A DNA stretch of 51,644 bases from Candidatus Parcubacteria bacterium (lineage in GTDB: Bacteria; Patescibacteriota; Patescibacteriia; UBA1558; GWA2-36-10). This document shows positions 34,288 through 44,373 of this stretch, in pieces (the stretch's first letter is position 1; every line of letters begins with the position of its first letter). Under the pieces are notes generated by a model. That model had not been told where the DNA came from and did not search any database. It saw only the letters and a list, made by a program, of their open reading frames with translations. The stretch spans positions 1 through 51,644 of the forward strand of contig JABJNO010000023.1 of assembly GCA_018664825.1 (NCBI GenBank). Reading direction: 5' to 3'. Both the position numbers and the translations under genes were made by a program.

Positions 34288-35676
34288 TTGGACCTAAAAA
34301 ACATGGATAATTACGAGAAAAATTGGGAAAATGCTTTGGGTGAACTAGAGCTTTTGATTAGTAAAGCAAATTTTACTACTTGGTTTAAGAACACCTTTAT
34401 AGCCGAAGAAAATGATGGCAATATTGTGGTTGGTGTACCAAATGCTTTTACTAAAGTTTGGTTAGAAAAAAAGTATGATGACAAGATAACCAGTGCCTTG
34501 GAAAGTGTTTTATCAAAAAGTAATCTACAGGTTATCTACAGGGTCGAAAGTAAGGGTAAAAGTACTAACGTTAGTACAAAACCAGTTGACCAGGGAATCA
34601 AAAAAATCACCCCTGTGTACAACTCAAATGGAAATTCAGAGAAAGTTATCAATAAATTTGGGCTAAATCCTTCCTATAAATTCAATAGTTTTGTGGTTGG
34701 TCCTGGCAACGAGCTAGCTCAGGCAGCCGCTCATGCTTCTGCTCAAAAACCAGGAGCCTTATACAACCCTTTATTTATATATGGTGGTGTTGGTTTGGGG
34801 AAAACCCACCTAATACAATCCGTTGGTAATTATATTTTGGCAAAGAATCCAGAAAAAAAGATTCTTTACATAAATAGTGAGAAATTTACCAACGATTTTA
34901 TTTTTGCCATCAAAAGAGGTCAGACTGACCAATTTAAAGAAAAATATCGTAGTGTTGATGTTTTGTTAATTGATGATATCCAGTTTATCGCCGGAAAAGA
35001 ACAAACTCAAGAAGAATTTTTCCATACCTTTAATGCTTTACACCAAAACAACAAACAAATTATTATTTCTTCTGATAGACCACCAAAGGCTATCCAAGAA
35101 ATTGAAAATAGATTGATATCTAGATTTGAGTGGGGGATGATCGCTGATATATCTTTTCCAGACCTAGAAACTCGTGTAGCCATCTTACAAATGAAGGCTG
35201 CTAGTAAAAATTATAATCTTGATCAAGATATAATCCATTTTGTAGCTGCAAATATCCAAGAAAATATCCGTGAACTAGAAGGTGCTCTAAATAGAATTAT
35301 AGCCTTTCATGAACTCAACAATACAAGACCAACCCTAGATAGTGTAAAATCAATTTTAGGAGGCTTGTCTACTAATCCAAAAAAGGCTGGACTGACTAGT
35401 AAAAAACTTTTGGGTGTAGTGGCGATATTTTTTGATATTCATATGGACGATCTACTTGGTGCTAGTCGTAAAAAAGAATTAGTAGTGCCGCGTCAAATTT
35501 CTATGTACCTAATGAGAGAGGAGCTCAAGGCCTCTTATCCAAACATAGGGCGAGACGTTGGTAAGAGAGACCACACCACAGCTATGCACGCTTGTATCAA
35601 AATAAATAAGATGTTGGAGATAAATGACAAAATAAAAAACGATGTAGCGGTACTTCGTCAAAAGATATATGAATAA
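34288..35676 (+). CDS. dnaA: Chromosomal replication initiator DnaA (start TTG 34288 or ATG 34303)
   Basis: YNPLFIYGGVGLGKTHL, LLIDDIQF, NIRELEGAL, RDHTTAMHA. Confidence 0.99.
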   Translation: MDLKNMDNYEKNWENALGELELLISKANFTTWFKNTFIAEENDGNIVVGVPNAFTKVWLEKKYDDKITSALESVLSKSNLQVIYRVESKGKSTNVSTKPVDQGIKKITPVYNSNGNSEKVINKFGLNPSYKFNSFVVGPGNELAQAAAHASAQKPGALYNPLFIYGGVGLGKTHLIQSVGNYILAKNPEKKILYINSEKFTNDFIFAIKRGQTDQFKEKYRSVDVLLIDDIQFIAGKEQTQEEFFHTFNALHQNNKQIIISSDRPPKAIQEIENRLISRFEWGMIADISFPDLETRVAILQMKAASKNYNLDQDIIHFVAANIQENIRELEGALNRIIAFHELNNTRPTLDSVKSILGGLSTNPKKAGLTSKKLLGVVAIFFDIHMDDLLGASRKKELVVPRQISMYLMREELKASYPNIGRDVGKRDHTTAMHACIKINKMLEINDKIKNDVAVLRQKIYE

Positions 35677-35968
35677 GCTGTTTATAAATTATCAACAACC
35701 CTGTTTATAAAACAAGTTAAACTGCTTATAAGTCACCCCTCGCTTGTTTATAAAAATTTACTTATCCACCTCGACTCAAAAAAAATTTTTTACTTATCCA
35801 CCAACATGGGACTTATTCACAAAATTATAAACCGTTTATCCCCCTGTCAAAATTTTGAAAAACAGATAAAAACACTAACAAATAATCCAATTATTTAACA
35901 CTTATAAACATATTAACACCCCCTTACTACTACTACCTTTAATATAAATAAAAAATAAATATAATACT
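35677..35968. other. Replication origin oriC between dnaA and dnaN
   Basis: Nine or more DnaA-box-like 9-mers (e.g. TTATCAACA 35689, TTATCCACC 35762 and 35794, TTATTCACA 35813, TTATAAACA 35902), C-tract, TACTACTACTAC DnaA-trios at 35925-35936, then an AT-rich tract. Confidence 0.88.
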
Positions 35969-37069
35969 ATGAGGATAATTTGCACACAAGAAAATTTTAA
36001 CAAAGGATTAGGATTGGTCTCTCATATTGCAAATAAAAATTCCAATCTTCCAATCTTGAACAATGTTTTATTAAAAGCAGAAAAGGAAGGATTAACATTG
36101 ATAACAACAGACTTGGAAATTGGTATAAAGGTTTTTGTTCGTAGTAAGATAGAAACCCCAGGAGAGTTTACAGTAGACGCCAAACTCCTAAATAGCTTTG
36201 TGAGTCTTTTACCAAGAGAAAACATAGAGGTAAATTTAGAAGAAGGAAATCTAGAAGTAAAAACCAAAAACCAAGAGACTACCATCAATGGTATGGAAGC
36301 AGAAGACTTTCCTCTTATCCCTGATATAGACAAAGAAAATGAAGTAAATATTTCTGGTACTGCTTTGAGAAAAAGTTTGAGCCAAGCTATATTTGCTGCT
36401 TCTCTAGATACTTCTCGGGTTGAGATCAATGCTGTAAATTTTGTTTTCAAAAAAGATGAGCTTGTACTAGCTGCAACCGATAGTTATCGATTGGCAGAAA
36501 AAAAGCTAAAGATAGAAAACGACAAGGAAGCCAATTTGATAGTACCGCTCAAAACACTTCAGGAGCTTTTACGTATTTTGGGAGAATATGAAAATCAACA
36601 AGTAAAAATATATTTCAACGAAAACCAAATAATGTTTGCCTTTGATGGTGTGGAGTTGGTCTCTAGGGTGATAGATGGAAAATATCCAGATTACAAACAA
36701 ATAATCCCGGATGATTTTTCTACTATTTCCAAAATAAAAGTAAGTGAATTTGTACCCGCTATCAAATCAGTGGCCCTGTTTTGTAAACAAGGTATCAATG
36801 ATATAAGATTTAGCCTTGATTCAACCAAAAATGAGCTTGTGATAGCCACAGCATCATCTAGTATGGGTACTAGTACTGCCAAGGTACCAATCGAAATCAA
36901 AGGAGAGGATAATGATATTGTGTTTAATTATCGTTATTTACTTGATGGACTCAGTAATATGAGTAGTGATGAAGTAGAGCTCAAAATAAACAATAATGCG
37001 TCCCCTGGCCTAATTCAACCAACCAACGATAAAAACTATAAATATTTAGTAATGCCTATTAGGCAGTAA
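35969..37069 (+). CDS. dnaN: DNA polymerase III beta sliding clamp
   Basis: LPILNNVLL, TDLEIGI, AATDSYRLAE, SRVIDGKYPDY, YLVMPIR. Confidence 0.98.
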   Translation: MRIICTQENFNKGLGLVSHIANKNSNLPILNNVLLKAEKEGLTLITTDLEIGIKVFVRSKIETPGEFTVDAKLLNSFVSLLPRENIEVNLEEGNLEVKTKNQETTINGMEAEDFPLIPDIDKENEVNISGTALRKSLSQAIFAASLDTSRVEINAVNFVFKKDELVLAATDSYRLAEKKLKIENDKEANLIVPLKTLQELLRILGEYENQQVKIYFNENQIMFAFDGVELVSRVIDGKYPDYKQIIPDDFSTISKIKVSEFVPAIKSVALFCKQGINDIRFSLDSTKNELVIATASSSMGTSTAKVPIEIKGEDNDIVFNYRYLLDGLSNMSSDEVELKINNNASPGLIQPTNDKNYKYLVMPIRQ

Positions 37070-37127
37070 AAAATACACAAAAATAAAAACCCCACTACTT
37101 CTAGTGGGGTTTTGGTTTCAACAAAAT

Positions 37128-38288
37128 TTATTCAGGACTTGTCATGTGTTTGGTAAACTTACGACAAATACTCTTGAAATAAGAGGTTGCCTCATCATCA
37201 GGTAATAAGGTGTAGAGTTTACGCCACTTGTCTTTGGGGCTACCAGCTGAACTGAGGTGGAGTAAAATCTGACCCAACATACCTAGGGCGGTTTGGTAAA
37301 TTTCCTCAGGAAGAGTAAGGAGCATCCTTTCGAGGTTGCCACTAACCATCCGATTCATCAAATAAGTGAAGCTGAGTTTGTCAGCCACCATGTATCCGAT
37401 GTAGGTTTGGAATTTTACTTTGACGCGTAAGCCGTTTGAAAAACGAATTACATAACCCTCTGTATTTTGTACAGCTCGATCACCCATCATCTCAACTAGA
37501 GAGGTGATGTTTTTTCGTAGGTCCACCAGAGGATCACTTTCGGACTTACCGGTCCAAATAGGTGTGACCTCGAGGCCGAGCTTGCTAGCGTAGCCCATGA
37601 GGCGTCTGTAGCCATAATCAGCCATAGTAGCCGTGCTGTTGGCACTGATGATGGTGAATCTTTTTTGACCTTGATAATCCACAAATACTTTTGTGTCAGG
37701 GTGGATGATTTCTACGAGTAGGGTTAGGTTGGTGGGAAAATTTTTCTTCCAATTGTTTTCTCGCACATAGCGGGTCAACATGGTATTTCCCAAAACCGAA
37801 CTTCTACTCTCAAACGAACCACGTGTAGTCAAAACAAACTCATGTTGGTAGCGGAAAATAATTCCCAGGTGACCATCTTGTTTGAGGGTAGCCTCAAATG
37901 GTAGTTTGGGGAGGTTTTGTGTTTCAGGGTGTTCTCCGTGATTGAAAAATTTTGGGAAAGATAGGGCTACTAGTTGACCGGTACGATCAAAAATAATACC
38001 TCGACAAAGCCGAAGTTGATCTGTCCATCCTTGGGGGAACATATAAAGCACATTGTGAGCTACGGGTGTATAGTTGAGCCCAATCAAGGGTAGGGTGGGG
38101 TGAAAAAATGGTTTGACCAAAGAGGTGATAGCGGGTAGTTCTTCTTCTTGGGGGTAGTCAAATAGTTGGCCAATTTCTACCTTGTGCTCTGCAGCAAAAG
38201 ATTTCCAAGAGCCGTGATCTACTACACCACACGAAACCATAAACTGGATGAACTGAGCGAGTTTTTTGAGGGCTGGTTTTCTTTTCAC
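37128..38288 (-). CDS. T4 Rnl1-like RNA ligase (GTG start)
   Basis: LCRGIIFD..ALSFPKFFN, motif I KQDG, TRGSF, EII, EGYVI, RVKVKF; own promoter TTGACA-17-TATTTT. Confidence 0.85.
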   Translation of the reverse strand: MKRKPALKKLAQFIQFMVSCGVVDHGSWKSFAAEHKVEIGQLFDYPQEEELPAITSLVKPFFHPTLPLIGLNYTPVAHNVLYMFPQGWTDQLRLCRGIIFDRTGQLVALSFPKFFNHGEHPETQNLPKLPFEATLKQDGHLGIIFRYQHEFVLTTRGSFESRSSVLGNTMLTRYVRENNWKKNFPTNLTLLVEIIHPDTKVFVDYQGQKRFTIISANSTATMADYGYRRLMGYASKLGLEVTPIWTGKSESDPLVDLRKNITSLVEMMGDRAVQNTEGYVIRFSNGLRVKVKFQTYIGYMVADKLSFTYLMNRMVSGNLERMLLTLPEEIYQTALGMLGQILLHLSSAGSPKDKWRKLYTLLPDDEATSYFKSICRKFTKHMTSPE

Positions 38289-38460
38289 GATTTACCTTCT
38301 TTTTGTTGAGTGTTTTTAAGGATCGAAAATAACCACATAAAATATCATAAAGGTGTTTTTTTGTCAATACATAAACCCAGTAAACATGGGTTTTTTTTAT
38401 CTTATTTTTAATAGTTGTACACAAGGCCTTTGCAAAGGTTTAAAAAGTTTGTTATAATAT

Positions 38461-38565
38461 AAGCACCTAAAAAGGCTTTTTGAACGAGAGCCCAGATAGG
38501 TACTATTTAATATTGTTCCCGATGGAGCATCCAAATGACATCCTAGCGCGATTGGGGTGTTTTTT
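38461..38565 (+). ncRNA. Candidate small RNA I, divergent from the RNA ligase
   Basis: Promoter TTGCAA(38430)-17-TATAAT; ends pair (AAGCACCTAA 38461 with TTGGGGTGTTT 38552); inner hairpins; T-tract; no ORF. Confidence 0.4.
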
Positions 38566-38582
38566 GGTTGTCAAAAAAAGAG

Positions 38583-39068
38583 CTATGTAGGCTCTTTTAA
38601 TAGTATGGTAGTCTGTAAATTATCACCTCTGATTTCGAGCGAAATCACATCGTCTATTATTTTATTTCTAACTATTGTTTTTAAAACATAAGCAACCAAT
38701 GAAGCATCTTTGGATAGTATAGAATCAAATTCATTATTATCTATAAAAGAATATAGTTGCTGTTTATCCAGTGCTCCTTTGTTTCTCAATAATTCAACTG
38801 GTATTTGTAGGTGAAGTTGGGTGTTGTTGTTTTTTGGTATTGGTATTATTGTAATACCAACATCACCAGAACTAAGGGAGTTGTAATTTTCAAAATAATC
38901 ATAAACAATTTTTTGAATATCATTTTGACAGGCGTGTATTCCTAAAACTACTTTTTCTTTTTGTGATTTGGTTTCCTCTAAATTATTTTCATCAACCACA
39001 AAATCAACTAATTCTTTTTTAGTAATAACTAGATTGTCTATTAATCTTTGGCAGTCTGATTTTTTCAT
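38583..39068 (-). CDS. Hypothetical protein, paralog 6 of tandem array
   Basis: MKKSDCQRLID start; similar to 39070-39516 at protein and 5' DNA level. Confidence 0.8.
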   Translation of the reverse strand: MKKSDCQRLIDNLVITKKELVDFVVDENNLEETKSQKEKVVLGIHACQNDIQKIVYDYFENYNSLSSGDVGITIIPIPKNNNTQLHLQIPVELLRNKGALDKQQLYSFIDNNEFDSILSKDASLVAYVLKTIVRNKIIDDVISLEIRGDNLQTTILLKEPT

Positions 39069-39069
39069 A

Positions 39070-39516
39070 TTAATTTTCTAATGTTATGTGTATTGTGCCG
39101 TTGGGAATTTTTAAAACCTCATCAACCTTAAAGTGTTTATTTTTTGTTAGTATTTTTAAAACATTGCTTATCAATTTACTATCTGGAAATATTGTATCAA
39201 AGTCCTCAACAAGGGCAGCTTCTTTTATTTTTTGTAAATCTCGTTTTTGGCCCATGGGAAAGATTTGAATTTTAATAGTATCAGAAAGATCAGAGACAAA
39301 ATTTATAACAATTCCATCTGCAGAAAACTCACCAGTTTTGAGTAAATCAAAAACAACACTTTCTAAATCGTTTTCACAAACAAACAACCCATGCTCTACT
39401 TGTTGTTTTTGAACCCCAGCTGTTACCAAATCATCTCCATTGGTTTCCAGAACAGCTAGGTGTATTTTTAAATCTTTAAAACTGTCTATTAATTTTTGGC
39501 AGCGTGATTTTTTCAT
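39070..39516 (-). CDS. Hypothetical protein, paralog 5 of tandem array
   Basis: MKKSRCQKLID start; C..D(L/I)..(V/I)V.D and FD.I motifs shared with neighbours. Confidence 0.8.
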   Translation of the reverse strand: MKKSRCQKLIDSFKDLKIHLAVLETNGDDLVTAGVQKQQVEHGLFVCENDLESVVFDLLKTGEFSADGIVINFVSDLSDTIKIQIFPMGQKRDLQKIKEAALVEDFDTIFPDSKLISNVLKILTKNKHFKVDEVLKIPNGTIHITLEN

Positions 39517-39521
39517 ATATT

Positions 39522-40022
39522 TTATGTGTTAGAAATTTCTATAGAAATAGAAAGGGCGTTATCGGGGCCATGAAAAATATTTTTTATTTTATATTTTCTA
39601 TACATTGCTATTTGGCGTAAAATCCCAATCAAAACATCGCGGCCAGGGAATACTTCTTTAAAATTACCATCCTCAATAAGCTCTGTGAGTTTAGCTGAAT
39701 CTTTCATTTGTATACTTGGAGGAATATGGATATCAAGAATATCATTATCATGTTTGGAATAAACAAGTTTAACGTCATTTATAATAATTGTTTTATTTGA
39801 CTCACCTTTATCCAAGAGTATAGAGTAGACAATGTGTACTAGGGTTTCTCTACAGTTATTAATTTTCGCGACTCCTCCTCTTTTTTTTCGTCTCAAATTT
39901 TGAAGGTTCAATTTATTTTGATCACTCAAAAAACTTTCTAGATGTCCATCATAAGCAGGCACAAACTCTTTTAAAGCTCGAATATCTCTTACAAGTCCTA
40001 CGCAATTGTTTCTTGTATACAT
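39522..40022 (-). CDS. Hypothetical protein, paralog 4 of tandem array
   Basis: MYTRNNC start; CRETLVHIV and FKEVFP align with paralogs 5 and 6. Confidence 0.78.
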   Translation of the reverse strand: MYTRNNCVGLVRDIRALKEFVPAYDGHLESFLSDQNKLNLQNLRRKKRGGVAKINNCRETLVHIVYSILLDKGESNKTIIINDVKLVYSKHDNDILDIHIPPSIQMKDSAKLTELIEDGNFKEVFPGRDVLIGILRQIAMYRKYKIKNIFHGPDNALSISIEISNT

Positions 40023-40023
40023 A

Positions 40024-40587
40024 TTATCTTTTTCTTGGGAAATTAAATTCTATACATTGTTTTCGAACAACATCACCGCGGTTTTTTATTTTTATCGTTG
40101 GGTTAAGAGGGGATAAGCCCTTTTCTACCAACTCTTTTTTTGTATGAAGCTTAGAATTTTTTTTGATAGTCAGGAGTATTTGGAATACCAGTAACAACTC
40201 TCTGTCTTCTGGATAATCTTCTTTTAATTCTTTTATAAATTCAAAAAGAGATCCTTGTTCGTGCTCTCTTATAAAAGATTCCATTTCAAAAGCGTCTTGG
40301 CTAGCTGGCGTCATAAAATTATAACCAAAACTAAACCTCACCCCCTTGTAGCCAGGAGGGGTATCATCTGTTAATAAAAATCTTTTCGAGTCCATGTAAT
40401 CAGCAATAATCAAAAACCTGGACATGGTAAGAGTTTTATAAGCCTCCATATCTACTTTGGCTTGCGACATCTCACCAAAGTCTTTGGTCTTTATGGCTTT
40501 GGCTAAATCAGAATCAAAATCAACCAAGGTCTCGTGTCCACCTTTTATGTAGTGTCTCAAATATTCACAGTTTTGTTTTTTACTCAT
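40024..40587 (-). CDS. Hypothetical protein, probable paralog 3 of tandem array
   Basis: MSKKQNC start, same size class and tight coupling; most divergent member. Confidence 0.72.
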   Translation of the reverse strand: MSKKQNCEYLRHYIKGGHETLVDFDSDLAKAIKTKDFGEMSQAKVDMEAYKTLTMSRFLIIADYMDSKRFLLTDDTPPGYKGVRFSFGYNFMTPASQDAFEMESFIREHEQGSLFEFIKELKEDYPEDRELLLVFQILLTIKKNSKLHTKKELVEKGLSPLNPTIKIKNRGDVVRKQCIEFNFPRKR

Positions 40588-41104
40588 ATTGTTTTATTTT
40601 TGGATCAAAACTTATTGAAAGAGCACCCACCGCATCTTGGGGGTCGGTGATTTCTGAAACATCCTCATGCTCAATTTTTACAGTATTGTTTACAGATAAC
40701 ATTTTTAAAAGTGAATAAATCACCTTTTGTGATATTGTGTATTTAGAAACTTGTTCTATGTCCAATTCTCCTGTTGCTTTTAATTTTTCGATAACTTTTT
40801 TAAGAGCTGATACAGAGGCATGTGAGGACATAAGATTTGTTGATAAATCAATTGTAGGTACTGTAGCTACTTTGAAGCCACGTAAAGAAAAATCTCCACC
40901 ATAAACGTGTGCGTCCATGTGCATCAATATAAAATGTTGAATACCGGCGATAGAATTGAGAATACCATTTTTTCTACTATTGGTATGTTGTAGGGCTTCT
41001 GGGCTACCAAAAAAATAATCAGCCTGAGAATCAAGCTCGTCTATAAGCCCTCTGGCATGACCGATGTATATGCGCATTTCTTCACACAATTCTTTTCTAT
41101 CCAT
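40580..41104 (-). CDS. Hypothetical protein, paralog 2 of tandem array
   Basis: MDRKELC start; LKATGELDIEQVSKY, LLKMLS, SISFDP align with paralog 1. Confidence 0.8.
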   Translation of the reverse strand: MDRKELCEEMRIYIGHARGLIDELDSQADYFFGSPEALQHTNSRKNGILNSIAGIQHFILMHMDAHVYGGDFSLRGFKVATVPTIDLSTNLMSSHASVSALKKVIEKLKATGELDIEQVSKYTISQKVIYSLLKMLSVNNTVKIEHEDVSEITDPQDAVGALSISFDPKIKQYE

Positions 41105-41105
41105 A

Positions 41106-41630
41106 TTATTTATTAGGTATAAATTCTATTGAAAAACCAGTTGTTTTGTTTTCTGGTCGCCAGGGAGATAATTCTTTTACTATTTTTATAGTAGTCTGTA
41201 GGGTTAAGATTTTCAAGAGGGGGGCGGGAAAACTATAACTTATATTTTGGTCATATTTAGAAAGTGTGTCTATATCCAAAACCCCAGTTGTTTTAAGTTG
41301 GTCAAATACCCCTTGCAAATCCATTTGCGAGTTACTACCGGAGTGATCATGAACATAGAATTGTAAACCCCTACTTAATATATTGTCATTTTCAAGGTTT
41401 ATAGTATCCAAAACAATATCAGATACATGTCTATTGGAACTCAGGTGCCTTAGAATATCAAGTTGTATATCAGCCACACTCTTTAGAAATATTTTTTTTA
41501 ATTCCTTTGATTGATTAAGCTCTTGGTTACCATCTAAAAAATCAGAAAAATGATAATCAAACAAGTCTTCGGATTTTTTTACAATAAGGAGGTGTTTTTG
41601 AATTGATTTACACAACTCTTTTTTATCCAT
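41106..41630 (-). CDS. Hypothetical protein, paralog 1 of tandem array
   Basis: MDKKELC start; LKTTGVLDIDTLSKY, LLKILT, FSIEFIP. Confidence 0.8.
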   Translation of the reverse strand: MDKKELCKSIQKHLLIVKKSEDLFDYHFSDFLDGNQELNQSKELKKIFLKSVADIQLDILRHLSSNRHVSDIVLDTINLENDNILSRGLQFYVHDHSGSNSQMDLQGVFDQLKTTGVLDIDTLSKYDQNISYSFPAPLLKILTLQTTIKIVKELSPWRPENKTTGFSIEFIPNK

Positions 41631-41631
41631 A

Positions 41632-41838
41632 TTATTTTATTTCTTCTATTTTTAGAACCTCTATTGGACAAGCTTCTATAGCCTGTTGGACACAATCAAA
41701 AGTTTCCTCTGTGATTTCATCTGTGGTTACAGAAACCTTGCCGTCATCGCTGGGGGTAAATATTTTTTCACAAACAGCACTACAGGTCATACAGCCAATA
41801 CAATCTTCTTTATTTAGGGTTATTTTATATTTTTTCAT
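41632..41838 (-). CDS. Small ferredoxin (single-cluster type)
   Basis: CIGCMTC..C and distal ACP motif, 68 aa. Confidence 0.92.
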   Translation of the reverse strand: MKKYKITLNKEDCIGCMTCSAVCEKIFTPSDDGKVSVTTDEITEETFDCVQQAIEACPIEVLKIEEIK

Positions 41839-41847
41839 TATTTTTGT

Positions 41848-43107
41848 TTAATCGTAGATTTCTCTTGTCTTTATTATATACAATTTATCGTTTTTACGCA
41901 CAGGTTTATCCACTGGTATAGTGACAAGTTGTTTTGGTTTGGCAGACTTTGCTTTACTTTCATCCTCTAGTTGGAGAGATTTTATTTTGCCAAAAAGTAC
42001 ACCAGTCTTTGGTCCGGTGATAGAAAAGTTATCTCCGATTTTTATATTATGAGCCTGTAGGTCTATTTCGGCTATCTTTGATTTTGGAAAATAATGAGTA
42101 ATGATACCTGCAAAAAATCTTTCTTCGGTAGCCTGTGAGTTTCCACTAGCTGACCATTCGTGGGTAGGTTTACCAAGATAGTATCCATCGCTTATTCCTC
42201 TATTGAAAACAGTTTTCAATTCTTTTTCCCATTTTTTGATTTTACCCAAAGTATAGGTTCCCTCATCAATACTATTTATAGCCTCACGGTAAGACTTGAT
42301 AACCTTGGCGACGTACTCTGGACTTCTGCCTCGGCCCTCTATCTTGAGACTGTATATCCCAGCTTCCAAAAAATCTTTTAGAAAACCAATTGTACAAATA
42401 TCTTTTGGGCTCATCACAAACTCATTGTCTATTACCATCTCTTGGCCGGTATCGACATCACTTACCTTGTATTTACGTCTACACATTTGCCTACAAGCCC
42501 CACGGTTGGCAGATGTATTTTCACTGTATAGGCTCATATAACAACGACCAGATATTCCGATACACAAAGCACCGTGGGCAAAAGCTTCTATGGGGATTAG
42601 TTTGCCTTGTTTGTTTTTTATCTTTTCTTTTTTTATAGTTTCCGTAATATTTTTTATCATTGGTAGAGTGAGTTCGCGGGCTAGTACAATCTGATCTGCA
42701 TACTGAGCATAAAACTTTACACTTTCAACGTTGGACACAGAAAGTTGAGTAGAAATATGTAAAGGCATATCTATGCTATCGGCATACTGTACCGCTGCCA
42801 TATCAGAAACAATCACAGCTGTTACTTTATTTTCTTTAGCTGTCTTGATTATTTTTTTCATCATTTCTAAATCACTATCATAAAGTACGGTGTTTACAGT
42901 GAGGTAGGATTTTATTTTGGCTTTCTGACAAATTTTGGATATTTTTTTGAGATCATCCAAATCAAAGTTGGCAGCAGCCACTGAGCGCATATTGATATGA
43001 CCAACACCAAAGTACACAGCGTCGGCACCGTTGTCTATAGCGGCTTGCAGGGCTTCGTATGAGCCAGCAGGAGCTAGTAGTTCTACGTTGTATTTTTTCT
43101 TTTTCAT
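41848..43107 (-). CDS. Peptidase U32-family protein (TrhP/RlhA-like RNA hydroxylation protein) with C-terminal beta domain
   Basis: ELLAPAGS, GADAVYFG, LHISTQ, LARELTL, HGALC..SGRCYMS..NRGACRQMCR, SLKIEGR. Confidence 0.9.
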   Translation of the reverse strand: MKKKKYNVELLAPAGSYEALQAAIDNGADAVYFGVGHINMRSVAAANFDLDDLKKISKICQKAKIKSYLTVNTVLYDSDLEMMKKIIKTAKENKVTAVIVSDMAAVQYADSIDMPLHISTQLSVSNVESVKFYAQYADQIVLARELTLPMIKNITETIKKEKIKNKQGKLIPIEAFAHGALCIGISGRCYMSLYSENTSANRGACRQMCRRKYKVSDVDTGQEMVIDNEFVMSPKDICTIGFLKDFLEAGIYSLKIEGRGRSPEYVAKVIKSYREAINSIDEGTYTLGKIKKWEKELKTVFNRGISDGYYLGKPTHEWSASGNSQATEERFFAGIITHYFPKSKIAEIDLQAHNIKIGDNFSITGPKTGVLFGKIKSLQLEDESKAKSAKPKQLVTIPVDKPVRKNDKLYIIKTREIYD

Positions 43108-43194
43108 AATATACTATTAAACTATATAATATCTTACTTGTCTAGGCAAAATAAAAAGCCCCGATTTTGTAATCGGGGCTTGTAATGTTCAAAC

Positions 43195-43668
43195 CTAATC
43201 TCGACTTGAGATCATGTGACGAAGTCCATGGAAACTAGACCAGATGATCCAGCCAACCAAACAGGCTATGGCGACAAACATTATTGTGCCATCCACATAA
43301 ACACCTATTTTCAGAAGGTGAGCAAAGATAACGCTGATATTAGCAAAATACAGTAGCCAAGCTAGGATTCCACAGAAAACTAGTGAAGCTAGTATTTTGA
43401 GTTGACCAGCGCCACTGAGGCTATCATTGGAAATTGGCGGAGAGGTGCGAATCACCCAGATGGCACAGAGGCTAATCAACAGGGTCCATAGGACAGGATC
43501 GACAAACGAGTGTTTGATATCAAAGGCGTGTTCGCCTCCATTCATGGTTAATTCGACATCAATCCAGCTTGAATCTGTCATAGGGGTGGGAATCAAAAAG
43601 ATACAGCGACTAATAGCTAGTGTGATTACAGTCACAAAAAGCAGGATTTTTAGTTGTTTTCTGGACAT
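43195..43668 (-). CDS. Hypothetical membrane protein (about 4 TM)
   Basis: SD GGAGG, promoter TTGACA-17-TAGTTT, terminator AAGCCCCGATT/AATCGGGGCTT at about 43156-43181. Confidence 0.7.
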   Translation of the reverse strand: MSRKQLKILLFVTVITLAISRCIFLIPTPMTDSSWIDVELTMNGGEHAFDIKHSFVDPVLWTLLISLCAIWVIRTSPPISNDSLSGAGQLKILASLVFCGILAWLLYFANISVIFAHLLKIGVYVDGTIMFVAIACLVGWIIWSSFHGLRHMISSRD

Positions 43669-43803
43669 TTTTATCCTCCGTGGTTTGAAAATTCAAGGAA
43701 CGCTTATTGACTATTTAATTAATAGTTCAAACTACTATAATGATTGTTTTTTGTCAAAGCTCTCATCATTGAATTTGTTTAAAAACTCTGATAAAATAAG
43801 TCC

Positions 43804-44373
43804 ATGATAGCATATATAAAAGGAAAGATTATAAATAAAACAAACAGGTCTATAGTTGTTTTGACGGGTGGAATTGGTTATGAAGTATTTTTACCTCTAA
43901 AACAGCTGGAAACCATCAAGATTAATGATGAAAAAGAGCTTTTTATCTATTCACACATAAAAGAAGACATGTTTGATTTGTATGGTTTTTCAAAAGAAGA
44001 AGAAATGGATTTTTTTAAAAAAGTAATTTCAGTTTCTGGTGTTGGTCCAAAATCAGCTCTCAACATCCTGGGTCTGACTAGTGTAGAGGATCTCAAAAGA
44101 GCTATTGCTAGTGAGGATCCTAGTCTACTCCAAAAGGTTTCGGGTATTGGCAAAAAAACAGCCGAGAGACTCGTGGTGGAACTCAAAGAAAAGTTTATAG
44201 TTGATTTGTCTGAAAAGATTGTGGTCAGCAACAAAGATAAACAAGTTGTAGATGGTCTTGTGTCCTTGGGCTACAAAGAAAGTGAAGCCAAGGAGGCGGT
44301 CAATAGTTTATCAAAAGAAGAGATGGATTTGGCCACCCGCATCAAACAAGCTTTGCAGGTATTGAATAAATAA
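43804..44373 (+). CDS. ruvA: Holliday junction branch migration protein RuvA
   Basis: MIAYIKG, GGIGYEV, DLYGF, VSGVGPKSAL, VSGIGKKTAERLVVELK, LVSLGY. Confidence 0.97.
   Translation: MIAYIKGKIINKTNRSIVVLTGGIGYEVFLPLKQLETIKINDEKELFIYSHIKEDMFDLYGFSKEEEMDFFKKVISVSGVGPKSALNILGLTSVEDLKRAIASEDPSLLQKVSGIGKKTAERLVVELKEKFIVDLSEKIVVSNKDKQVVDGLVSLGYKESEAKEAVNSLSKEEMDLATRIKQALQVLNK

Follow-up and report, generated by a model that had tools for sequence, protein, structure and literature searches.

Six tandem genes behind a U32–ferredoxin pair in a Candidatus Parcubacteria genome as part of a larger family with a cysteine-capped N-terminal module

A 51,644-nucleotide (nt) stretch of DNA from Candidatus Parcubacteria bacterium (contig JABJNO010000023.1 of assembly GCA_018664825.1; hereafter, the window) contains six small genes in tandem, directly after a U32-family gene and a ferredoxin gene. 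What kind of proteins do these genes encode, and why do they follow this pair? An earlier note, made from the sequence alone, described them as six divergent paralogs of one unknown family and as a lineage-specific expansion under diversifying selection, with interchangeable specificity subunits, immunity proteins or a hetero-oligomer as possible roles. We found that the array is one sub-repertoire of a far larger family, rather than a self-contained six-member family, because its constrained N-terminus is common to ~90 other genes across the genome. The array is a peripheral instance of that system. We give a probability of roughly 60% to the reading that it belongs, as a fast-evolving sub-repertoire that is specific to the lineage and varies in copy number, to a family that combines a constant N-terminal module (N-module) with variable C-terminal domains.

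The array and its N-terminal module

The six genes, numbered P1 to P6, were taken from a list of open reading frames (ORFs) and fall into three sequence groups, A to C:

41630-41106, minus strand: P1, 174 amino acids (aa), group A; N-module plus a private alpha/beta C-terminal domain
41104-40580, minus strand: P2, 174 aa, group A
40587-40024, minus strand: P3, 187 aa, group B, without a paralogue
40022-39522, minus strand: P4, 166 aa, group C
39516-39070, minus strand: P5, 148 aa, group C
39068-38583, minus strand: P6, 161 aa, group C

P1 starts 1 nt past the stop codon of the ferredoxin gene, and the intergenic distances from P1 to P6 are 1, −8 (an overlap of P2 and P3), 1, 5 and 1 nt. Each of the six proteins starts with M-x(4-5)-C, the cysteine being Cys7 in P1–P4 and Cys6 in P5 and P6, and the leaders before it consist of 5–6 hydrophilic residues (MDKKEL, MSKKQN, MKKS[DR]). 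No GGAGG-type Shine-Dalgarno sequence occurs upstream of the six starts. Because four of the array starts have the form TAA-T-ATG, we suggest that translation could be coupled from stop to start. None of the six proteins has a signal peptide, their N-termini being hydrophilic, and the GC content of the array (0.30–0.35) is comparable to that of its surroundings. The layout given by the earlier note was thus reproduced when re-derived from the ORFs, and its remarks on start context, signal peptides, host-like composition and contiguity with the ferredoxin and U32 genes were borne out.

A profile of the six proteins gave a weak six-frame match elsewhere in the genome, which led to further tandem arrays whose genes start with M-x(n)-C-E-x-L-K. 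Scanning N-termini for this motif, we found it in 70 of 1,222 called genes, versus 3.6 ± 1.9 with shuffled N-termini. Given this excess, the orthologues in other assemblies and ratios of nonsynonymous to synonymous substitution rates (dN/dS) below 1, the six ORFs appear to be genuine genes and not chance ORFs. Read from its cysteine, which lies within the first ~14 residues, the module has the consensus C-[EKQ]-x-[LFI]-[KR]-x-x-[LIF]-x-x-h-K-x5-[FL]-x3-[LF]. In the family as a whole, the leader before this cysteine is hydrophilic and has 1–12 residues. All six array proteins fit the motif, P1 (CKSIQKHL) and P4 (CVGLVRDI) loosely.

Motif genes, hits of hidden Markov models and hand-checked neighbours together make up 86 trimmed module members. 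A profile of 81 modules (A7) finds 92 six-frame matches in the 1.16-Mb genome, amounting to ~7.5% of its ~1,220 genes. A genome-wide search for further copies, which the earlier note had proposed, was therefore productive. The note's constrained, Cys-bearing N-terminus is real as a constraint, but it is not particular to the six genes. In the array, whose six modules are all among the training rows of A7, this profile matches as follows:

41451-41630, minus strand: N-module of P1, E 1.8e-6
40928-41104, minus strand: N-module of P2, E 3.2e-9
40456-40587, minus strand: N-module of P3, E 1.9e-10, the best of the six
39840-40022, minus strand: N-module of P4, E 1.4e-5
39346-39516, minus strand: N-module of P5, E 4.2e-7
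38895-39068, minus strand: N-module of P6, E 4.8e-9

A model built without the array genes ranks P3, P2, P6 and P5 at positions 65, 68, 69 and 73 of 1222, which is just past its training set. We also compared the first 70 aa of each array group with two clusters of module proteins, cluster 0 (35 members) and cluster 1 (13), using hhalign. The alignments are in register 1:1, have probabilities of 88–95% and E-values of 2e-8 to 2.5e-6 (95% and 2e-8 for P3 against cluster 0), and are as good as the matches among other clusters.

The relationships among the six proteins over their full length are less simple than had been supposed. By BLASTP and phmmer, P1 resembles P2 (29% identity, E 3e-15), P5 resembles P6 (29%, E 4e-12) and P4 resembles P5 (28%, E 1.5e-7). 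The two subgroups recognized earlier, P1 with P2 and P4 with P5 and P6, are accordingly real, and P3 stands by itself. Searches with jackhmmer against all ORFs of the genome, seeded with each of the six, did not merge the three groups, and direct profile-profile comparisons between groups are weak (E 0.017–0.061). When the N-terminal ~60–66 residues were cut, the scores that hhalign gave to the C-terminal parts were reached by 14, 24 and 3 of 100 column-shuffled controls. Between groups, homology is demonstrable for the N-terminal ~55 residues alone, by way of the larger sister families. The all-versus-all comparison suggested in the earlier note thus relates the N-modules across groups but leaves the C-terminal parts no better than shuffles. 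Judged by sequence, the six would form three sequence families rather than six proven paralogues.

Structure prediction agrees with the helical hairpin and alpha/beta C-terminus that had been expected. The AlphaFold2 model of P1 (predicted local distance difference test score, pLDDT, 81.6) has helices at 3-32 and 39-65, and that of P5 (pLDDT 83.5) at 3-22 and 30-61; in both, these are followed by beta-beta, three helices and beta-beta. In Foldseek searches, nothing in the PDB matched P1, and nothing in the PDB or BFVD matched P5, at E ≤0.001, so the predicted architecture is not accompanied by a significant fold match. The best TM-scores are 0.3–0.4, to generic proteins with a hairpin and an alpha/beta part (MexA, histidine kinases). 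A histidine kinase or ChpT-like protein with DHp and CA domains, which occupies the top Foldseek rows, was rejected: TM-scores are 0.2–0.38, no E-value is ≤0.001 and the alignments have no invariant His.

At their start, P5 and P6 agree at 32 of 36 nt (39516-39481 and 39068-39033), confirming the near-identity described earlier, whereas identity over the whole proteins is only 29%. This pattern suggests local gene conversion, or a constraint on DNA or mRNA at the start. One could go further and suppose that the shared N-terminus of the family is a nucleotide-level element for translation initiation or recombination that is copied between starts, and not a protein domain. The P5/P6 pair, whose genes have otherwise diverged, would agree with this, as would starts that lack Shine-Dalgarno sequences and depend on stop/start coupling. 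However, conservation in the family is at the amino-acid level, extends over ~55 residues and has heptad-like spacing, and the module persists in other taxonomic families, where the underlying DNA is different. Identity at the DNA level is confined to the P5/P6 pair, which fits local gene conversion. We regard a nucleotide-level element as extremely improbable.

Beyond the N-terminus, BLAST clustering divides the module family into 27 head groups. Heads elsewhere in the genome include LRR-like repeats, WG beta-repeats (PF14903, WG_beta_rep, 1e-58) and several unknown small domains; hhalign found no match between the C-terminal heads of the array and the heads of other module clusters. The family is organized into 33 same-strand tandem arrays or singletons with gaps of a few nt (for example C3:223575-231582, C7:83926-86110, C16:8635-12930 and C23:73287-76657). 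Many of the other module arrays start 0–4 nt past housekeeping genes, namely metG, glyS, xth, a GluRS-like gene and map, as if riding their transcripts.

The array family itself is confined to one lineage. An exhaustive profile search of 1.84 billion representative proteins gave nine array-family matches, all from assemblies of the same lineage or near relatives except one marginal coiled-coil match. Word-indexed searches with P1 and P3 found matches confined to this lineage, and the array family is missing from 60 related genomes. These results uphold a lineage-specific expansion. Scans of metagenome and genome collections for the U32 gene, using overly specific back-translated patterns, retrieved only distant U32 genes (34–48% identity).

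The earlier statement that the family is an unknown one also stands, there being no characterized match in Pfam, NCBIfam, PHROGs, PADLOC, the PDB or BFVD. None of the first four has anything significant for the six proteins (Pfam has no family at E up to 1), and the best PADLOC scores are partial, at 16–17 bits (Csn2 and DpdD, E 7.6e-4 to 8.5e-4). In seven other module members, the module matches no Pfam family at E up to 0.01, and the module profile finds only coiled-coil noise among PDB sequences. Full-text literature searches found no description of the array or of the module family. In short, no family library that we searched, and no solved structure, viral model or paper, describes either.

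Neighbourhood, copy number and rate of evolution

The following features surround the array:

41848..43107, minus strand: U32-family gene (TrhP/UbiU-like), the first gene of the array's transcription unit; PF01136, E 6.5e-68
41632..41838, minus strand: single-cluster 4Fe-4S ferredoxin, 68 aa; PF13370, 4.8e-12, and PF13459, 1.9e-10
38373..38598, no strand assigned: conserved non-coding stretch at the probable 3′ end of the unit; 227 nt align to the related assembly L017 with 79% identity
37128..38288, minus strand: Rnl1-type RNA ligase; PF09511, 3.5e-17, and phrog_562, 1e-34

The U32 protein matches the NCBIfam models for TrhP (1.2e-54) and UbiU (5.1e-51), both below the cut-off. A terminator-like hairpin (43181-43156) and a promoter-like site (43149-43121) lie just upstream of the U32 gene, and between U32 and P6 the unit shows no strong terminator on the minus strand.

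In L017 (U32 86% and DnaN 91% identical), a single P5-like gene lies between the ferredoxin gene and dnaN. Its protein (P0020) is 46% identical to P5, which is the only array member with an orthologue there. In another close relative, L012 (U32 90% identical), there are at least three array genes, P1′, P3′ and a P4–6-like gene, in this order. P2 is missing in L012, where P1′ and P3′ are aligned to the window with a skip of ~470 nt, and the orthologues of P1 and P3 are 44% and 58% identical, respectively. Four family-level relatives (U32 65–77% identical) have U32 and the ferredoxin, then convergent dnaN and dnaA, and no array. A fifth has U32–ferredoxin and then unrelated genes, and a sixth is without the ferredoxin gene, which therefore follows U32 in five of six family relatives. 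Copy number, which the earlier note had proposed to compare across strains, thus varies from one (L017) through at least three (L012) to six (the window). Because gene content differs in this manner, with none in the family relatives, the array grew from an insertion at the tail of the U32–ferredoxin operon within one genus. It shows how a repertoire grows: over the span of a single genus, genes are gained, duplicated and lost at the end of a housekeeping operon.

These comparisons bear on the idea that the six proteins are interchangeable specificity subunits of, or form a hetero-oligomer with, the U32 protein and the ferredoxin, for example by steering an RNA or quinone hydroxylase to its substrates. 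The idea is attractive in that all of these genes are on the same strand, P1 starts 1 nt past the ferredoxin gene, the order U32, ferredoxin, array is kept in two relatives and a conserved Cys is found beside Fe-S proteins. However, four family genomes keep U32–ferredoxin before convergent dnaN with no array at all, and the array has one, at least three or six genes while U32 stays 86–90% identical. In addition, like arrays follow unrelated housekeeping genes, and the N-module is common to ~90 genes that are unconnected with U32. We therefore consider such subunits very unlikely, and the functional tie that the earlier note entertained is contradicted. Since relatives keep the pair without the array, the array content varies and sister arrays follow other housekeeping genes, the array is best read as lying next to U32–ferredoxin by position, with U32 a neighbour and not a demonstrated partner. 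The array genes should not be annotated as U32 or ferredoxin accessory subunits, tempting as this mis-annotation would be.

The order transmembrane protein, U32, ferredoxin, convergent dnaN and dnaA is kept across the GTDB family (window positions 34288-43668; relatives L057, L058, L060 and L062), and the array is within ~3–7 kb of dnaA. The transmembrane protein upstream of U32 evolves fast: its counterpart in L017 is 55% identical, and nothing similar is seen in L012. At the other end of the array, the conserved stretch 38373-38598 contains two hairpins that read as terminators on the plus strand. Its counterpart in L017 is between the single array gene and dnaN. A search of positions 37000-44000 with Rfam, which included this stretch, found no credible RNA. 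The RNA ligase gene beyond it has a GC content of 0.42, versus ~0.33 nearby, and its own promoter-like site (38367-38339), and it is missing from L017 and the six family-level relatives. This gene is a separate insertion between the array and dnaN and lies outside the array.

We estimated dN and dN/dS by comparing the window with L012 and L017, where dS is 0.7–1.5 and thus near saturation:

U32: dN 0.06–0.08, dN/dS 0.05–0.07
Ferredoxin: dN 0.11–0.23, dN/dS 0.14–0.32
P1: dN 0.47, dN/dS 0.52
P3: dN 0.29, dN/dS 0.27
P5: dN 0.39, dN/dS 0.39

The dN values of the array genes are 5–8 times that of U32. With gene-wide dN/dS below 1 in all three array genes and dS near saturation, the diversifying selection that had been suggested is not shown; the array evolves fast under relaxed purifying selection.

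Rapid change of this kind also calls to mind immunity proteins. The six could belong to a polymorphic toxin or defence system as "orphan" cassettes with an immunity or antitoxin-like role that diverge under conflict. They are indeed small genes in tight tandem, confined to one lineage, that diverge fast and vary in copy number among close relatives. However, there is no toxin, nuclease or secretion gene in or beside the array, no Pfam immunity family was matched and the PADLOC matches mentioned above are not convincing. The same N-module is found on LRR-like and WG-repeat proteins, which are binding modules rather than typical immunity folds, and dN/dS is below 1. We consider immunity cassettes unlikely.

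Two further observations concern individual array genes. In the assembly L015, positions 283-362 correspond to window positions 40399-40320 (P3 codons 63-90) and contain eight clustered differences, in a 1731-nt contig that is otherwise identical. All are T>G, A>C or G>C and the contig has a coverage of 3.6x; they look like sequencing errors, though they mimic targeted hypermutation. A diversity-generating retroelement or hypermutation of P3 was rejected, since the genome has no RVT_1, and the differences are not adenine-specific and look erroneous. We also set aside P0018, a 339-aa ORF (L016:1875-2894, from JGI contig set 3300025660) in which a radical-SAM N-terminal half is in frame with residues 24-161 of P6. 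Since nothing in the genome that contains the window matches the first 2473 nt of the contig, this fusion probably arose from chimeric assembly.

The conserved cysteine and a candidate partner

What could the module do? Its Cys is present without exception in the 81 aligned modules and is in phase with hydrophobic positions +3, +7, +10, +17 and +21. It is the only Cys in 46 of the 86 module proteins. Outside the tag, Cys makes up 0.35% of the residues of these 86 proteins, versus 0.87% genome-wide, which is a 2.5-fold depletion. Because Cys is both invariant in the tag and depleted elsewhere, the lone residue may well perform thiol chemistry, such as a disulfide, metal binding or covalent capture. 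There is one Cys each in P1 and P2, and two each in P3–P6. In group C and its orthologues, a second Cys is conserved 41–50 residues past the tag (Cys57 in P4, position 47 in P5 and P6). The hairpin as predicted would place it opposite the tag Cys.

An N-terminal Cys might also indicate a bacterial lipoprotein. We rejected this candidate, as there is no hydrophobic signal peptide or lipobox and the array leaders are 5–6 hydrophilic residues. A broader version of the idea is that the N-module is an unconventional signal for export or surface targeting and that the family is the secreted or surface repertoire with which an episymbiotic cell of the candidate phyla radiation (CPR) meets its host. 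A fast-evolving family that has binding-type heads and takes up ~7.5% of the genes, Cys depletion apart from one conserved Cys, and a small, symbiont-like genome would all suit such a role. Nonetheless, the family has no signal peptide, lipobox or transmembrane segment, its leaders being 1–12 hydrophilic residues, and Pfam matches it to neither WXG100 nor LXG. Module genes are not linked to a known secretion ATPase; their sole recurrent neighbours are a cytoplasmic-type set of AAA+ and vWA genes. An export signal is in our view doubtful.

This recurrent set suggests a different partner. In the genome containing the window (G000), positions C7:66910-74683 encode a 965-aa AAA_5 ATPase, a 70-aa acidic protein with one Cys and a 1053-aa protein with zincin (HEFAH) and vWA (DNSGS; DxSxS motif) regions, and two module genes with LRR-like heads flank the set. 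In genome G164 (L063) these three genes come directly after four module genes, and in G095 (L064) after one. The small acidic protein has one or two cysteines across the three genomes. Among 400 class-level genomes, the module is patchy: 12 have it, with expansions in G164 and G268. The ATPase is present in 13 of the 400 and both are present in 3, against 0.4 expected (Fisher p = 0.005). The linkage between the module and the AAA+/zincin-vWA set is real but not obligate. The set of a giant MoxR-class AAA+ ATPase, a small acidic Cys protein and a zincin (HExxH)-vWA protein is the best candidate for a partner, but we advance it tentatively.

Putting these elements together, we propose the following for the constant-module family. 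Each array protein consists of a hydrophilic leader of 5–6 residues, the module, which is an amphipathic helical hairpin of ~55 residues with the invariant Cys in its first turn, and an alpha/beta domain of ~90–120 residues that is restricted to the array locus and close relatives. The array genes, appended to the 3′ end of the U32–ferredoxin operon, would be translated in series. The module could be a common handle for docking or assembly that joins interchangeable heads to one shared partner or to each other, and the array heads may be quickly diverging domains for binding or recognition.

Several results weigh against this picture. In the leave-out model, P1 and P4 rank at 214 and 149; their module signal is weak alone, and they join the module family through their paralogues. 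The AlphaFold2 models of P1 and P5 agree in the succession of elements, in which two long helices are followed by a beta hairpin, three helices and another beta hairpin, but both come from one mixed, shallow alignment and so are weak evidence of a shared fold. Profile A7 has 0–1 matches in each of 60 relatives, counts that are lower bounds given that the profile was trained on the genome under study. With respect to the partner, G268 (with 8 genuine module genes), G340, G354 and others (with 1–2 each) have no detectable ATPase or zincin/vWA protein, and 10 ATPase-positive genomes have no module match. Profile A7 finds no module copy within C7:67598-73978, which encodes all three proteins of the candidate set, and the array is on a different contig from this set.

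A more specific mechanism would have the Cys act as a chemical plug. Module proteins would be captured covalently, as a mixed disulfide with the small Cys protein, or else, much as in a cysteine switch, through the metal site of the zincin. Their loading, exchange or release would then fall to the AAA+/zincin-vWA machine or, where it is missing, to an equivalent partner. We consider this version rather unlikely. If it were true, however, the Cys plug would provide ultra-small CPR bacteria with a rapidly diversifying, genome-encoded library of recognition heads on a common chassis. To our knowledge, no thiol-coupled modular repertoire of this kind has been described in bacteria.

Regardless of mechanism, ~7.5% of the genes in a single undescribed tagged family is a large investment for a 1.16-Mb genome under strong reduction. 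Such an investment points to something central to the lifestyle of this bacterium, and recognition of a host or partner is a likely candidate. The array proteins are a convenient entry to this question, since they are small (148–187 aa), well predicted and contain one or two cysteines, which suits expression, structure determination and Cys-to-Ser substitution.

Comparison with known systems

U32 hydroxylases paired with ferredoxins are known, as in E. coli, where TrhP acts with the ferredoxin YfhL in the synthesis of ho5U in tRNA. The upstream pair in the window, which combines PF01136 with a single-cluster ferredoxin, resembles this ordinary pairing. We know of no U32–ferredoxin system with such an accessory array. 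The locus differs from TrhP–YfhL in that an array lies behind the pair, and relatives keep the pair without the array.

WXG100 and LXG domains are N-terminal helical hairpins of type VII secretion substrates. Like them, the module is an N-terminal helical hairpin of similar size with variable C-terminal domains behind it, and it is encoded by clustered genes. However, the module has no WxG turn motif, having an invariant Cys in its stead, and there is no match to PF06013 or PF04740. No EssC-type system turned up, although no search was aimed at EssC.

Polymorphic toxin/immunity loci, known from the work of Zhang, Aravind and colleagues, have a constant N-terminal region with variable C-termini or orphan cassettes. 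The module family shares with these loci the tandem arrays, the constant N-terminus with a swappable C-terminus, the rapid divergence and the strain-level change in copy number. By contrast, we matched no toxin domains, immunity families or trafficking domains of known secretion systems. Unlike displaced C-terminal cassettes, the array genes encode short proteins (148–187 aa) and each has its own module.

The closest parallel is with the effector-associated domains (EADs) of MoxR-vWA ternary conflict systems (Kaur, Burroughs, Iyer and Aravind 2020, PMC7159879). EADs are small, non-enzymatic and mostly helical terminal domains that have been proposed to be coupling adaptors (PMC7159879). The module, likewise, is a small, mostly alpha-helical and non-enzymatic terminal domain on proteins whose other domains vary, is found beside a MoxR-class AAA+/vWA pair as well as at other places in the genome, and would have the same proposed role as a coupling adaptor (PMC7159879). 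There are also differences. Missing here is the feature that defines EADs, namely a further copy joined to one of the core components (such as VMAP, iSTAND or vWA), and the heads are repeats or small unknown domains and not the usual enzymatic effectors. The module has an invariant Cys and no Pfam match to a named family, and its host is a CPR bacterium with a tiny genome instead of a multicellular one. Moreover, the vWA protein here has a zincin-like HExxH region, and several genomes with the module are without the machine. By analogy, then, the adaptor principle of EADs appears to be the nearest published concept, and the module system would be EAD-like in its working without being a member of that class.

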